A stretch of DNA of 64,000 nucleotides from Eledone cirrhosa (taxonomy: Eukaryota). Location: assembly GCA_964016885.1 (NCBI GenBank), contig OZ024764.1, forward strand, positions 5,704,001-5,768,000, given 5' to 3'. Under the pieces are notes generated by a model. That model was given only the letters and a program-made list of their open reading frames with translations. It ran no database searches and had not been told where the DNA came from. Below are positions 10,092 to 33,433 of this stretch, piece after piece; within the stretch, counting starts at the first letter, position 1; each line of letters begins with the position of its first letter. The position numbers and the translations under genes were made by a program.

Positions 10092-10146
10092 ACTGCCTGA
10101 AGAGGTCACAGCCAAAGATGGCTGTCACTGAAATATATATAGCAGT
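10092..10146 (+). ncRNA. Minimal type I hammerhead ribozyme
   Basis: Stem I actgc/gcagt; core CTGAAGA 10097-10103; stem II ggtcacagcc/ggctgtcact; GAAA 10130-10133; palindromic tatata; TA cleavage site. An AATAAA follows directly. Confidence 0.8.
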
Positions 10147-10224
10147 AATAAACGAAGCTAAATTTTAAACATTTGACTTTTTATTTAACTTTATTTTATA
10201 TTGTTTTATATATATATATATATA

Positions 10225-10432
10225 TAGGAACGAGTAGGACCCCGACGGCTGAGCTCAAGCCGTTTCGACGGCTAATTCTGGACTAAATGATTTAGTCCAG
10301 AATTAGCCGTCGAAACGGCTTGAGCTCAGCCGTCGGGGTCCTACTCGTTCCTATTACCCACTCTACTACCCTAAGTATTGAGTACTTTGGTGCGTTATGG
10401 TCCACCTGGTTCCTTACCACATTTCCTTCGTT
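10225..10432. mobile_element. Fold-back element in (TA)n: perfect 64-bp-arm palindrome (10225-10353) plus unique tail; Penelope-like remnant
   Basis: Arms are exact reverse complements centred on 10289. The same family occurs inverted at 29953-30143 and truncated at ~32315-32450. Confidence 0.75.
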
Positions 10433-10491
10433 ATATATATATATATATATATATTGTTTTATATATATATATACATATATACATATATATA

Positions 10492-10945
10492 TAGTTGTGT
10501 ATAGTGGTAGCTATGGTACTTCCATAGGAGGTATGCCAAAATTAGCACTCAATATTCCTCAGAGTAGAGTGTGGATATTATCAAGAAAACGAAAAATCAG
10601 TGATGCATCTGGACTTAGTTTATTTCGTGTTACAAATGTTTCGCCAGCATGTAGCTCGAGTCATGGTCCTTGTATGGATCTGGCTGATTCTACTTCTGCG
10701 GATTCTTTCAGACACGTCTGTTATGTCCGGAGCAAATTTTATCACTGGGGTGCTGTCATCAAAACAACCCCTCAAAAAAACCTTCTTTCCACTCTTGTCA
10801 TTCCATTGGCTGTTTTTGCTCCGCGTCATCACAAGTTCTGGTCAATATCTGCTGCCACACAGTTCATCAACTATTTTCCGTCCGACATATTTCAATGGAG
10901 TCATGCTGGGTTCAGTACTTCACACGTCTGCTGACACTTCAGAGT
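10492..10945. mobile_element. Dispersed repeat inserted in (TA)n, related to the fold-back at 23766-24128
   Basis: Shared start tagttgtgtatagtggtagctatgg...tcagtgatgcatctggactt. Confidence 0.7.
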
Positions 10946-11029
10946 AAGCACCCACACATACTAGAATAAACACATAGTAACACACACATATATATACTCA
11001 GACATACACCTATCTATGCATTCACACTC

Positions 11030-12046
11030 GGGCATACGTTAAGACGGGCGTTCTGGAAAGTGAAAGTAAATTTTTTGACAACACTGAATTTGTTTTTTTT
11101 ACAGTGAAAGTTACGATACACACGCAATTGTATGGATTTCTTAATAGATATATATGTGTGTACACTGTGAATTTGTTTGTTTATTTACAACAGGTCTCTA
11201 TAGTGATATGGTGTTAATTAGTATTGCGTGTTGTTTATTTACAACAGGTCTCTATAGTGATATGGTGTTAATTAGTATTGCGTGTTGTTTATTTACAACA
11301 GGTCTCTATAGTGATATGGTGTTAATTAGTATTGCGTGTGTGATTATTTTTTCTTTAGATAGAAACCGCGGAGTGGGGAGACCCAAGATGACTTGGGATG
11401 AGGTGATAAAAGCCGACCTTACCCAACTACACCTCTCAAAGTCAATGACACACGACCGTGACTTCTGGCGTCACGCAGTAATACAGGGTACCCGACCTCC
11501 CATGGGTACATGCTGAAGCATGTAAACAATATGCCCCCACTCCCCCCACCGGAAGGTGGTCGTGGAGGTGCCACGGCAAAAAAGCACCCAGCCCACACTG
11601 TAAAGTGGACGTGTAGGCGCCACGAAAAAGCACCCAGCACTCACTGTAAATGAGGTTGGTGTTAGGAAGGGCATCCAGCTGTAGAAATCAAGCCAGATCA
11701 GTTCCTGTATGAGCAAGGCATGGTCAGCCGACCAGACACTGCCCACAACAGGACAACCCGTCTAACCCATGCTAGCGTGGAAGAACGGACGTAAAACGGT
11801 GATGATGATGATGAGACGTTAAACGATGATGATGACACAAACACATATATATATACAAACAGACATATATATATACATACAGACACATATATATACACAC
11901 CCACACATATATATATATATATTAAGAAATCCATACAATTGCGTGTGTATCGTAACTTTCACTGTAAAAAAACAAAACAAACAAATTCACAGTGTTGTCA
12001 AAAAATTTACATTCACTTTCCGGAACGCCCGTCTTAACGTATGCCC
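11030..12046. repeat. ~115-bp inverted repeat (11030-11144 / 11921-12046) enclosing a 54-bp x3 tandem repeat and an RTE-tail element
   Basis: gggcatacgttaagacgggcgttc...ggatttcttaat is reverse-complementary to attaagaaatcc...cgcccgtcttaacgtatgccc. Confidence 0.85.
11362..11834 (+). mobile_element. RTE 3' fragment joined to a non-autonomous RTE-tail SINE ending in (GAT)n
   Basis: RGVGRPKMTWDEVIKADL; gttaggaagggcatccagc...ggacgtaaaacggtgatgatgat tail. Similar copies at ~13890-14070, 16700-16920, 23125-23740, 37128-37560 and 40775-41460. Confidence 0.75.
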
Positions 12047-12291
12047 ACACTCGTACGTCTACATGCTCAGACACCCACACCGCCACATACATCGCAGTAT
12101 ATATACTCACACACCCTCTCTCCCATGGACCCAGTCACACCCACTTGTTGATACATGCCGTCACGAGCCTTTTCACTGTTCTGTATCAATTGGGTAAGCA
12201 TGTCATATTCAAACGTACACATATATACATACACATGCGCGCCAGCACACATACGGCCAACCTTCTATACATTTAAATATATATATATATA

Positions 12292-13115
12292 TCATCATCA
12301 TCATCATCATTTTACGTCCGCTCTTCCCTGCTTGCAAGGGTGGGACGGGTCTTATTCAGCACAGCATCTCTCCACTCGTCACGGTCCCTCGTCATCTCCA
12401 CCGTGAGCTTCAATGATCTGAGGTCTGTTCTCACCACCTCCGCCCATGTTTTTCGTGGTCTACCTCTACCACGTCTTCCTTCAACTGGCATTTTCTGGCA
12501 CTTCTTCACCCATCGGTCATCCTCCATGCGCATCACATGTCCATACCACCTCAGTCTCCTCTCCCGTACACTACATTCTATCCCTCTCAGACACAGTTTC
12601 TCTCTCAACACATTTATGCTGGGTCGTTCACGCACATTTACACTGCACATCCAACGGAGCATGCTTGCCTCATTTCTCTCCAGCCGTCGCATATCTTCTG
12701 CGGTAGCTGCCCATGTCTCACTACCATGCAGCATCGCGCTCCTCACACAGGCATCATACAACCGGCCTTTCGTACGCAGGGAGAAACCCTTCTTCGTCAA
12801 CAGAGGAAGCAGCTCCCTAAACTTCTTCCAACCCGTCCTTATTCTAGATACTATGGCCTCGGAACACCCTCCTCCCATGCTAATCTGATCTCCTAGGTAC
12901 CGGAAGCTATCCACCACTTCTATAGCGCCCTCTCGCATTTGAAAAATGTGTCTATCAGTGCGACTTCTACTGTCTAATTTCCCTGTACACCTACTGCATA
13001 CATATTTCTCCCTACCTGTTAGTTTGCCTGCTATCCCGCTACATCTCTTGTGTACCCAGGACCTACATTGTGTGCATTTTATAGAATTTATGCCAGTTCC
13101 TTTTCTGCATATCGA
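12292..13115 (-). mobile_element. 5'-truncated RTE-clade LINE (ORF2 C-terminal part, frame intact) with (GAT)n tail
   Basis: PHD-like CSICRKG..CTQCRSWVHKRC, FRYLGDQI, MLHGSETW, RRLRWYGHVMRM, RGRGRPRKTW. Confidence 0.92.
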
Positions 13116-13230
13116 ACATATATATATATATATATATATATATATACACATGCATATATACATACACACATACATACATACATATATACGCACATGTGCA
13201 TACACAGATATACATACACACCTAGGATTT

Positions 13231-13291
13231 TTTCATTCTGATGAATGAAAGTAAATATCGTTTGCTTTCAAGAAACCACTGGTAAATGAAA
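13231..13291 (+). ncRNA. Minimal type I hammerhead ribozyme
   Basis: Stem I tttcatt/aatgaaa; CTGATGA 13238-13244; stem II tgaaagtaaa/tttgctttca; GAAA 13272-13275; cc-act-gg stem III; GTA cleavage triplet. Confidence 0.75.
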
Positions 13292-31810: not shown

Positions 31811-31854
31811 TACATAGAACAAACACACAAATATATATATATATATACACTTAC

Positions 31855-31931
31855 TGGGCCTGCATATGTAGCATAGAGGACACTCTGTTGTGTAGACTGG
31901 TCTGTTGATAACATGTTGCTTGACAAAGCAG
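31855..31931 (-). CDS. NFYB: NF-YB exon ((T)ALSSNMLSTDQSTQQSVLYATYAGP)
   Basis: ctcttatatttcag acceptor and gtaagt donor; phase 1 to 0 fits both neighbours; resembles the NF-YB C-terminal TTDGQQQNVMVY region. Confidence 0.8.
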
Positions 31932-32139
31932 CTGAAATATAAGAGGCAGTTCTGATTTAGTGTCTGTTCTATATATATATATATATATATATATATATAT
32001 ATATGCAAAGGTTATATTTAATTTGTTGGGATTCAACAAGCTTAAAAATGTTTATAACTGATATAAAGCACTCAACAGATTAGTGGAGTAAATATACAAT
32101 ATATTAATAAATGGAAACTATATTTATAAAACCATATTT

Positions 32140-32203
32140 ATTTTATTATATATATTTCAAGGGCAACCAAGGCAAATTATGGTGCGCTTTCATCAGATAA
32201 AAT
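32140..32203 (-). ncRNA. Type I hammerhead ribozyme, solitary, in NF-YB intron, sense orientation
   Basis: Reverse complement: attttat CTGATGA aagcgcacca..tggttgccctt GAAA tatata TA ataaaat. Confidence 0.78.
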
Positions 32204-32499
32204 TAATTATAGAGATATAAAAGATACGGAAGTGAAAACCAACCGAAACTAAACAGTGAGTGTGTTCTGTTATTATATATGACCTTCCCCAAGTATAACA
32301 ATATATATATATATAACAAAGAAGATGTGGTAAGATACCAGGTACCAGGTGGACCATAACACACCAGAGTACTCGATACCTGGGGCAGTAGAGTGGGTAT
32401 TAGAAAAAGAGTCAGGACCCCAATGGCTGAGCTTCAGCCGTTTCAACAGTTAGATCCAAACTTTTCTGCCAACCCTCGAATATATGTAGGTATGTATAT

Positions 32500-33080
32500 A
32501 TATGGATGGACTGGACACCTCTGCAGAATGGAGGATGATCGAATCCCAAAACAACTCTTGTATGGCGAGCTTTGTGAGGGTAAGAGACCACCTCACTAAC
32601 CTAGGCTTCGATTCAAAAACTGGTTTGATGATGGCTGACTGGGAGATAGAAGCTCTTGAAAGAGAAACTTGGCGTGGAATGATGAATGATGGGTTCCATA
32701 ATTTTGAGGACAGGTGCATAGAGCATGAGAAGATCAAACGGGACGTGTGTAAGCAATGCCCTGGTGTATCTCTCGAAATGATCGGTGTCTCCATTGAATT
32801 GAAGTGCCCTGAGTGTGGAAAAATTTGCTTGAGCAAATCTGGTCTCAGAAGCCACAGTCGCAGCCATGTTAAGAGAGAACCAGTGAACTATGATCTCCAC
32901 GGTGTCGTGAGGGTTCATGGGCAACCTGATGCAGGACCTCAAGCCAGGGAGATCCATAATTGTCATCAGTGTGTGAAGGAGTGCAAGTCTCTAACAGGCT
33001 TGAAAAGCCATATCCGAGTGTCACACATCTGAATCTAACAAGCGATTGCAATACTCTTAGCAGAGTTTGCAGCCAACATC
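32500..33080 (+). mobile_element. RTE (BovB-like) LINE 3' fragment with two C2H2 zinc fingers
   Basis: WTGHLCRMEDDRIPKQLLYGEL..GKRP; CPECGKICLSKSGLRSHSRSH and CHQCVKECKSLTGLKSHIRVSH. Confidence 0.8.
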
Positions 33081-33194
33081 TATATATATATATATATATA
33101 TATATATATATATATATATATATATTTATATAATATATTTATATATATATATAAATAATATATAAGATCAAAAGATGGTTAAAAGAGTTCCATG

Positions 33195-33265
33195 TATTTT
33201 ATTATGCGCATTTCAAAAACAAATATCATCATGCAATAACATTTGCGTTTTCGTCAGATAAAATA
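33195..33265 (-). ncRNA. Type I hammerhead ribozyme
   Basis: Reverse complement: tattttat CTGACGA..GAAA tgcgca TA ataaaata. Confidence 0.8.
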
Positions 33266-33362
33266 GGGAGACACTTGTGAATAGTGCAGTTTTAAATCAA
33301 CATATGTTGATTTAAAACTGCACTATTCACAAGTGTGTTTTAACCTTCATATCATGTCTCCC

Positions 33363-33433
33363 TATTTTATCTGATGAAAACGCAAATGTTATTGCATGAT
33401 GATATTTGTTTTTGAAATGCGCATAGTAAAATA
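33363..33433 (+). ncRNA. Type I hammerhead ribozyme
   Basis: tattttat CTGATGA(33371-33377)..GAAA(33414-33417) tgcgca TA gtaaaata. Confidence 0.8.

Follow-up and report, generated by a model that had tools for sequence, protein, structure and literature searches.

Type I hammerhead ribozymes were located in the pseudo-long terminal repeats (pLTRs) of metazoan Penelope-like elements (PLEs) by Cervera & de la Pena in 2014 (PMC4209133), who also reported opposite-strand hammerhead pairs 100-700 bp apart, interpreted as truncated PLEs, and a U3-A8 core variant. In that account, a G10.1-C11.1 pair is typical of PLE hammerheads, and pairing of helix III between two copies is proposed. Truncated PLE insertions are elsewhere depicted with an inverted 5' copy, a tail at one end and a bias towards (TA)n (PMC8557442, Fig. 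2 legend), and their head-to-head palindromic joints have been attributed to self-priming on an antisense template, a question that the same source calls open (PMC3846280). For the Anolis element Poseidon_Ac, Frangieh et al. 2024 (PMC11167929) describe a protein, predicted to be a dimer, that cuts and extends both strands at AT-rich DNA; two internal reverse transcriptase (RT) start sites bound the tail, insertion proceeds without need for hammerhead cleavage, and the hammerhead cuts only with protein present. The origin of head-to-head joints is not addressed in the parts of that paper covered here. Relative to these systems, we describe a 64,000-nt stretch from the octopod Eledone cirrhosa (the window; GCA_964016885.1, contig OZ024764.1, forward-strand positions 5,704,001 to 5,768,000), in which hammerhead motifs occupy 100-900 bp inserts within (TA)n. 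We consider it quite likely that these inserts are 5'-truncated terminal repeats (pLTR plus tail) of several endonuclease-bearing PLE families, arranged around genuine hammerhead motifs, because their one-tailed, head-to-head, TA-embedded pairs match the published PLE signature.

An initial annotation of this window had listed at least eight minimal type I hammerheads in four sequence families. A strict descriptor (minimum 4 bp in stem I and 3 bp in stem II) recovers all eight: on the plus strand at 10092-10146 (copy A2), 13231-13291 (B1), 25595-25665 (short arm of C1) and 33363-33433 (tailed arm of C2), and on the minus strand at 13528-13589 (B2), 25413-25483 (tailed arm of C1), 32140-32203 (D) and 33195-33265 (short arm of C2). 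Each consists of stem I, CUGANGA, stem II, GAAA, a short loop III, UA and the return strand of stem I, and all eight have the features that define the type I hammerhead (a CUGANGA...GAAA...UH core, three helices and an open helix I). The worry that such motifs might be equally frequent in shuffled sequence is answered by two sets of 200 block-wise dinucleotide shuffles, in which the mean number of matches was 0.04 and 0.075 and the maximum 1 in 400, versus eight in the window. The two family C foldbacks hold four of the eight, the tailed D arm holds one, and the other three are in tailless solo arms.

The count itself is an undercount, since relaxed and variant scans yield further motifs and several 3' halves. 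These include a C3-G8 hammerhead with a 3-bp stem I and loop III CAUUG at 9837-9881 (+), a U3-A8 core variant with loop III CCGG and a G10.1-C11.1 pair at 26030-26065 (+), with a mirror copy, broken in stem I, at about 25917-25952 (-), and a CUGAAAGA core variant with a 61-nt stem-loop II and a 5-bp stem I at 10626-10716 (-). In total, 11 full or variant motifs stand within 24 kb besides the 3' halves; a weak motif at 30668-30704 (+) was left out of the counts. Halves of the form GAAA-palindrome-UH occur 18 times in the non-satellite regions; shuffles averaged 3.7 and never exceeded 10. G3-C8 and A3-U8 cores returned no match each in the variant-core scan of the window, and a U3-G8 match at 10773-10873 (-) and a CUGANNGA match at 34854-34931 (-) were discarded as likely chance.

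The division into four families holds as four sequence types in six insertions, with the qualification that two of these types, family C (at 25 and 33 kb) and the minus-strand D motif at 32140, are related (local alignment score 50 versus a null maximum of 38). Stems do differ between families while remaining paired, as had been noted: seven families carry a different paired stem I, pairing being also a search criterion. Features outside the descriptor are likewise shared. In stem II of A2, C, D and F1, a C-pyrimidine mismatch takes the place of the fourth pair; the sixth is C-G in the same four and is broken in one of the four C copies; and between C and D the third pair is swapped from A-U to G-C. 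Loop III was described as usually palindromic and is a perfect palindrome in six of the eight motifs, the exceptions being both copies of family B (13.2-13.6 kb), where CCACUGG is a palindrome around one central unpaired base. The predicted energy of helix III is 0.0 kcal/mol in a single copy and -3.2 to -10.5 kcal/mol between two copies of the eight motifs and of H, and helix III is therefore stable only as a predicted dimer. The suggestion that these ribozymes cleave as dimers agrees with the predicted loop III duplex; a cis-dimer is unavailable to these copies, as the pairs in the window lie on opposite strands, so that a transcript over a pair holds one hammerhead and its antisense. Such a transcript over C1, C2 or H is predicted to form a single hairpin of -226 to -261 kcal/mol. 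Separately, family E (10314-10332, with copies E2 and E3) has a helix III predicted to be stable as a monomer at -5.9 kcal/mol, unlike the other families, and by this folding model the parent hammerhead, whose 5' core half is absent from the window, may act as a monomer.

The geometry of the inserts, which the initial annotation had missed, carries the argument for PLEs. A masked self-comparison flagged 11 foldbacks, of which 10 were examined (the one at 6415-6472, 79% and TA-rich, was dropped). Nine of the ten are embedded in (TA)n and have their arms joined head-to-head, 5' sides meeting in the center; the tenth, at 37562-37692, is an inversion within a 65-bp satellite with no TA flanks and was set aside. 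In every one of the nine pairs, one arm is flush at the microsatellite (gap of -1 to 3 nt) and the other continues into a tail. Tails measure 80, 85, 60, 86, 66, 65, 129, 80 and 86 nt in E1, F2, L, C1, H, I, G, E2 and C2, respectively. If tails were independent at one half, nine one-tailed pairs of nine would have a P of 0.002, although the pairs represent seven families and are not fully independent. In eight pairs, the long arm reads on with TAT exactly where the short arm reaches TA; the exception is C2, where the aligned end falls a few bases deeper in the same AT-rich spot. The near 3' end lies 34-71 nt beyond the predicted cut in the seven arms measured, and a hammerhead, be it full, damaged or a 3' half, stands upstream of the 3' ends in eight of the nine foldbacks (F2 and I by eye). 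The tails are themselves related across families: a motif, ACTY ... RAGTRC, begins 4-9 nt into 8 of 11 tails in families C, D, E, F and I, and nine of its ten matches in the 21.5 kb scanned are in tails, while 29 of 5000 shuffled 90-mers contain it; because this motif was derived from the same tails, it indicates relatedness and is not a blind test. A tail reading frame common to the families was rejected, as the frame open in C and E has stops in D and F.

Individual inserts follow this plan with few variations. At the left, two plus-strand solo arms end at (TA)n, A1 near 9937 (it holds the extra hammerhead at 9837-9881) and A2 near 10209 (loop III UAUAUA, predicted cut after 10141). The adjacent foldback E1 (10227-10431; arms 10227-10351, 80-nt tail at right) retains only the predicted hammerhead 3' half, with GAAA, a long helix III and UC, and F1 is a solo tailed arm at 10494-10945 (-) that holds the 10626-10716 motif, its upstream boundary read by eye. 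B1, a solo arm of ~100 bp at about 13222-13318 (+), ends at TA; B2, a separate solo arm at about 13499-13620 (-), is 82% like B1 and points towards it. Both B copies have a pyrimidine-AG directly upstream of stem I (13222-13230 and 13590-13600), an observation on two copies only; the D. virilis Penelope intron ends at such a position upstream of stem I (PMC4209133). Farther right, F2 (23767-24141; arms 23852-24141, 85-nt tail at left) retains CUGAAAGA and has lost GAAA, and L (25032-25152; 30-nt arms, 60-nt tail) has no room for a hammerhead. C1 (25290-25702, 86-nt tail at left) bears its two full motifs, and H (25783-26133, 66-nt tail at left) the U3-A8 variant with its damaged mirror copy. 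Foldback I (28782-28974, 65-nt tail) is centered at the 5' edge of a damaged hammerhead, as read by eye; G (29015-29928, 129-nt tail) is a compound foldback with three GAAA-CGAUCG-UA 3' halves; and E2 (29955-30140) has its 80-nt tail at left. The D insert, sister family of C, is a tailed arm at 32006-32270 (-). Head-to-head against its 5' end stands an L short-arm end at 32279-32301 (+), 21 of 23 bases identical with the same end base and (TA)n next to it, which makes this a candidate two-family insertion. E3 (32316-32447, -) is a tailed arm with a shortened 5' side, and C2 (33154-33559) has a palindromic center at 33303/33304 and an 86-nt tail at 33474-33559. Seven PLE-type insertions stand in series from 23767 to 30140, and impure (TA)n tracts at 24137-25032 (0.9 kb) and 26137-28782 (2.6 kb) separate successive ones.

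Family C could be followed beyond the window. With the C2 arm and tail (33298-33568, 271 nt) as query against four of the 18 public sequence sets listed, matches were obtained in 3724 contigs (X1), 5022 reads (X16), and 6 (X4) and 34 (X9) sequences. Loose ends of these matches show (TA)n behind 33468/33478 and behind 33561/33567; family C therefore has two fixed 3' ends. Upstream of 33301, near-identical 30-mers recur in 267 X16 reads and in one contig each of X4 and X9, which extend 204 and 215 loose letters before that position, and the parent is therefore longer than the window copies and common to at least three organisms. Further opposite-strand joints (33302-33466, 33302-33530 and 33305-33427) are asymmetric, and so head-to-head joints form repeatedly; the preferred 5' end of the joint, near 33302, is common to both window C copies. 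These observations bear out the proposed mobility, in that family C has many copies, fixed 3' ends and TA-embedded inserts. The description as non-coding mobile families is less secure, since family C runs on upstream in three organisms and the copies may accordingly have been cut off from longer elements that possibly encode protein. The proposed link to either PLEs or retrozymes is likewise narrowed: the PLE architecture is present, and the tandem layout of retrozymes is absent from the window.

Variation within the C motif points to constraint. Variants are listed at 13 positions, none of them among the 12 invariant core positions and one at N7; four others fall in loop II and one in loop III (X16 only). 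At paired positions, all seven listed variants retain the pair, as would 22 of 38 possible transitions (P about 0.02-0.04), these counts resting on the listed rows, with 15 further variant rows not covered. In the source elements, the hammerhead is likely to be subject to selection. Summed depth, which is not a copy number, has no step at the predicted cut 33425/33426, in line with uncut RNA as the substrate reported for the Anolis element (PMC11167929). One opposite-strand joint, in three reads, contains an arm that begins at 33427; the 3' product of the predicted cleavage would begin one base earlier, and this arm is possibly a copy of cut RNA. The hammerheads in the window copies themselves are probably inert passengers on the model set out below, because the template would be mostly uncut when copied and a foldback transcript would bury the motif in a hairpin.

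Drawing on the biochemistry published for the Anolis element (PMC11167929), we propose the following route for these insertions. A PLE RT-endonuclease encoded elsewhere would cut both strands of AT-rich DNA, and reverse transcription would start inside the PLE RNA at either of two sites downstream of the hammerhead, a near one 34-71 nt past the cut and a far one 60-129 nt further. Each start site would serve one of the two DNA ends, with early termination of both cDNAs. Joining of these two shortened cDNAs would then yield a head-to-head pair with one tail, and a lone cDNA would yield a solo arm. In the source elements, the palindromic loop III may pair two copies, or a protein may help, so that multimeric RNA can be processed.

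Several observations weigh against this reading. The window tails of 60-129 nt exceed the 30-40 nt in print, and the TAT overlap at the short end is unlike the non-homologous initiation of the Anolis element. Arms within E1, E2 and F2 are identical at 62/62, 49/49 and 140/142 positions, relative to 47/50, 47/49 and 126/145 against other copies, and such closeness fits one template or later homogenization as well as two. All family C stem variants are one-sided, none compensatory. The G10.1-C11.1 pair is present only in H and is absent from the eight reported motifs, in which stem II is read directly from A9/G12 and the corresponding positions are A-U, U-A or A-A in B, C and D and G-U in A2. 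Rfam, which had been suggested as a check of the motifs, did not corroborate them: no hammerhead family is among the 150 of 198 whole-window matches listed, and three focused scans (E<=10) covering five of the eight motifs returned no hammerhead model. The Rfam matches obtained are microsatellite or hairpin artefacts scoring below gathering cut-offs. Finally, no coding parent was found. The absence of a Penelope RT or GIY-YIG open reading frame (ORF) from the window, as first noted, was confirmed by Pfam in all 324 frames of at least 38 aa, drawn from its non-satellite, non-low-complexity parts; the domains recovered were pieces of LINE (long interspersed nuclear element) RT, APE endonuclease, PHD, zinc finger and NF-Y histone fold, besides a few chance matches below the cut-off. 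A phmmer search with the longest upstream frame, 73 aa ahead of the F1 motif, returned two weak matches unrelated to PLEs, a word search with the 43-aa tail frame of family C gave no candidate PLE, and two pattern scans of metagenome contigs gave no PLE link. We nonetheless regard PLE membership as likely on DNA-level marks, with the defining ORF not linked and no clade nameable.

The nearest alternative retains the PLE machinery and differs from a truncated-PLE origin in the parent only. Self-standing, SINE-like (short interspersed nuclear element-like) non-autonomous elements with no coding parent, some of them copied as whole foldbacks, might be moved in trans by a PLE protein. The want of any ORF link agrees with this, and pLTRs are reported to suffice for trans mobilization (PMC3846280). 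Depth along the 271-nt C arm also lacks a steady fall towards the 5' end, 5' breakpoints recur at 33301-33305 in both window C copies and three further joints, and both C foldbacks share an arm-specific allele at 33460. Against it, the 267 X16 reads and the X4 and X9 contigs continue upstream of 33301 with one conserved sequence, and the other joints are asymmetric with different partners, such that foldbacks form repeatedly. We hold this alternative to be the less likely of the two, at perhaps a one-in-three standing. Derivation from non-LTR retrozymes, with tandem hammerhead repeats cut to circular RNAs and the window holding scattered monomers, is improbable. PLE pLTRs are indeed the source of retrozymes, which leave monomers behind (bioRxiv 10.64898/2026.07.22.740005), and for the palindromic loop III a duplex is predicted between copies and none within one; yet no hammerhead lies within any head-to-tail tandem repeat of the window, the hammerhead pairs are inverted, and no joint listed for the C2 arm returns a 3' end to a 5' end on the same strand. 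It is scarcely credible that AT-rich repeats produced the motifs by chance or that the foldbacks are assembly artefacts. Low G+C, the missing Rfam match and a stem I criterion built into the descriptor would suit chance, but the comparison with 400 shuffles refutes it for the motifs and the stem II features conserved without having been selected for also speak against it; as for artefacts, foldback arms differ by substitutions and indels, and the same ends, as well as joints between opposite strands, recur in independent reads.

A separate question is whether one RNA template or two built each head-to-head insertion. Self-priming on one antisense template, as proposed for Penelope palindromic joints (PMC3846280), or later hairpin repair would account for the perfect palindromic center of C2 and for E1 and E2, whose arms are identical within and differ between. 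Neither process alone explains why nine of nine pairs have a single tail, why the outer ends are fixed at the two 3' ends of the family, why the arms of both C pairs differ at a polymorphic site, or how the D-L joint arose, and we judge such an origin unlikely, if only by a modest measure. Slightly better placed, and still tentative, is the idea that two separately primed RNA templates, sometimes from different families, build each insertion. Here, a dimeric RT-endonuclease would cut both (TA)n strands; at the near start site, one end would pair through a 3-nt TAT overlap, and synthesis from the other would begin beyond a conserved tail stem, at the far site. The cDNAs would be joined, with D-L at 32.0-32.3 kb as the mixed-family candidate. 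It draws on the one-tail pattern, on the C arm alleles at 33460 (A in the short arm and T in the long arm of both C foldbacks, at a site polymorphic in the population) and on the 23-nt L end, with two mismatches, that faces D. On the other side, E1 and E2 arms are identical and F2 arms nearly so while copies differ; solo short arms are common (four cases), and the L piece may be a separate insertion; and the allele pattern at 33460 also fits copying of a whole foldback. If true, the two-template route would supersede self-priming on an antisense template, the explanation in print, and could be counted directly in octopod genomes thanks to their very many short copies. No two-template origin of head-to-head joints was found in the literature searched, a search outside which most subscription papers lay.

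The surrounding region is microsatellite, satellite and LINE debris. At 6770-8131 (-) lies an intronless frame for an ATAD1/Msp1-type AAA ATPase, which places the host among the octopods: its identity is 79% to a protein of Octopus bimaculoides and 78% to one of Argonauta hians, with other named animals near 60% or lower. An exact look-up of this ATPase returned no match. Three minus-strand pieces matching the NF-Y/CBF histone fold (PF00808) at 38580-38720, 40093-40239 and 41465-41653, separated by satellites and SINE-like repeats, are either gene exons or a split pseudogene. Minisatellite arrays occupy 17702-22371, 43020-52575, 53709-64000, 1276-2241 and 37718-38319, with units of 75, 48, 47 and 65 bp; the 65-bp array is present twice and has CTGANGA matches and no full hammerhead. 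Decayed LINE pieces lie at 41804-42439 (+) and at 12312-13232, 14069-16070 and 34394-35200 (-), one with a zf-RVT match and the others with RT, APE and PHD matches; the end of the zf-RVT piece bears what we take to be the motif of a restriction-like endonuclease. Dispersed repeats of two abundant families, a SINE-like one and one that ends in (ATG)n, recur in several copies each (8724-9521, 41636-41823 and 42616-42771; 11362-11814, 23118-23741, 37129-37489 and 40774-41191). Finally, a ~190-bp element present three times (22648-22843, 30159-30344 and 33752-33939) adjoins TA runs and has apparent short terminal inverted repeats read by eye, similar to a miniature inverted-repeat transposable element (MITE).

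The association of hammerheads with truncated PLEs, including opposite-strand pairs and the U3-A8 core, is already in print (2014). What the window adds is an octopod genome densely seeded with diverse PLE-type hammerheads missed by Rfam. The main text of a 2026 curated octopus repeat annotation (PMC13282606) has Penelope families and no hammerhead, ribozyme or retrozyme, and 235 Rfam hammerhead 1 matches were counted in the giant squid (PMC6962438). The literature searched contained no account of octopod PLE hammerheads; the supplements of PMC4209133 and PMC8557442, outside that coverage, may list cephalopod motifs. The remaining value of the locus is an unusually clean record of insertion geometry, and the one-tail-per-pair rule, together with candidate mixed-family joints, offers a cheap genomic test of PLE integration.

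In comparison with the systems described to date, the window motifs resemble the PLE hammerheads of PMC4209133 in their long helix II, short palindromic helix III, occurrence as single motifs and opposite-strand pairs, great sequence diversity in one genome and U3-A8 core variant. They depart from them in the G10.1-C11.1 pair, mostly absent here, in a helix I of up to 8 bp, in the CUGAAAGA core, in the stem II fourth-pair C-pyrimidine mismatch of four families, in the octopod host and in having no ORF linked. Non-coding animal non-LTR retrozymes (PMC7229834; bioRxiv 10.64898/2026.07.22.740005) are likewise PLE-related, low in G+C and a few hundred bases long with a type I hammerhead; unlike them, the window has inverted pairs and no head-to-tail tandem units. 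Poseidon_Ac (PMC11167929) shares two internal 3' ends downstream of the hammerhead, an AT-rich target and no sign of a ribozyme-cut template. It initiates at a site within the ORF start that has no homology to the target, whereas the near end in the window is TAT in eight of nine pairs and the tail has no consistent frame. In layout the inserts resemble the truncated PLEs of PMC8557442 and PMC3846280, with which they have in common head-to-head arms, palindromic joints, a single tail, solo pLTRs and AT-rich or (TA)n targets, and from which they differ by tails of 60-129 nt in place of 30-40 nt, insertions of 120-900 bp with no coding part, and at least seven families with the one-tailed layout within 24 kb.

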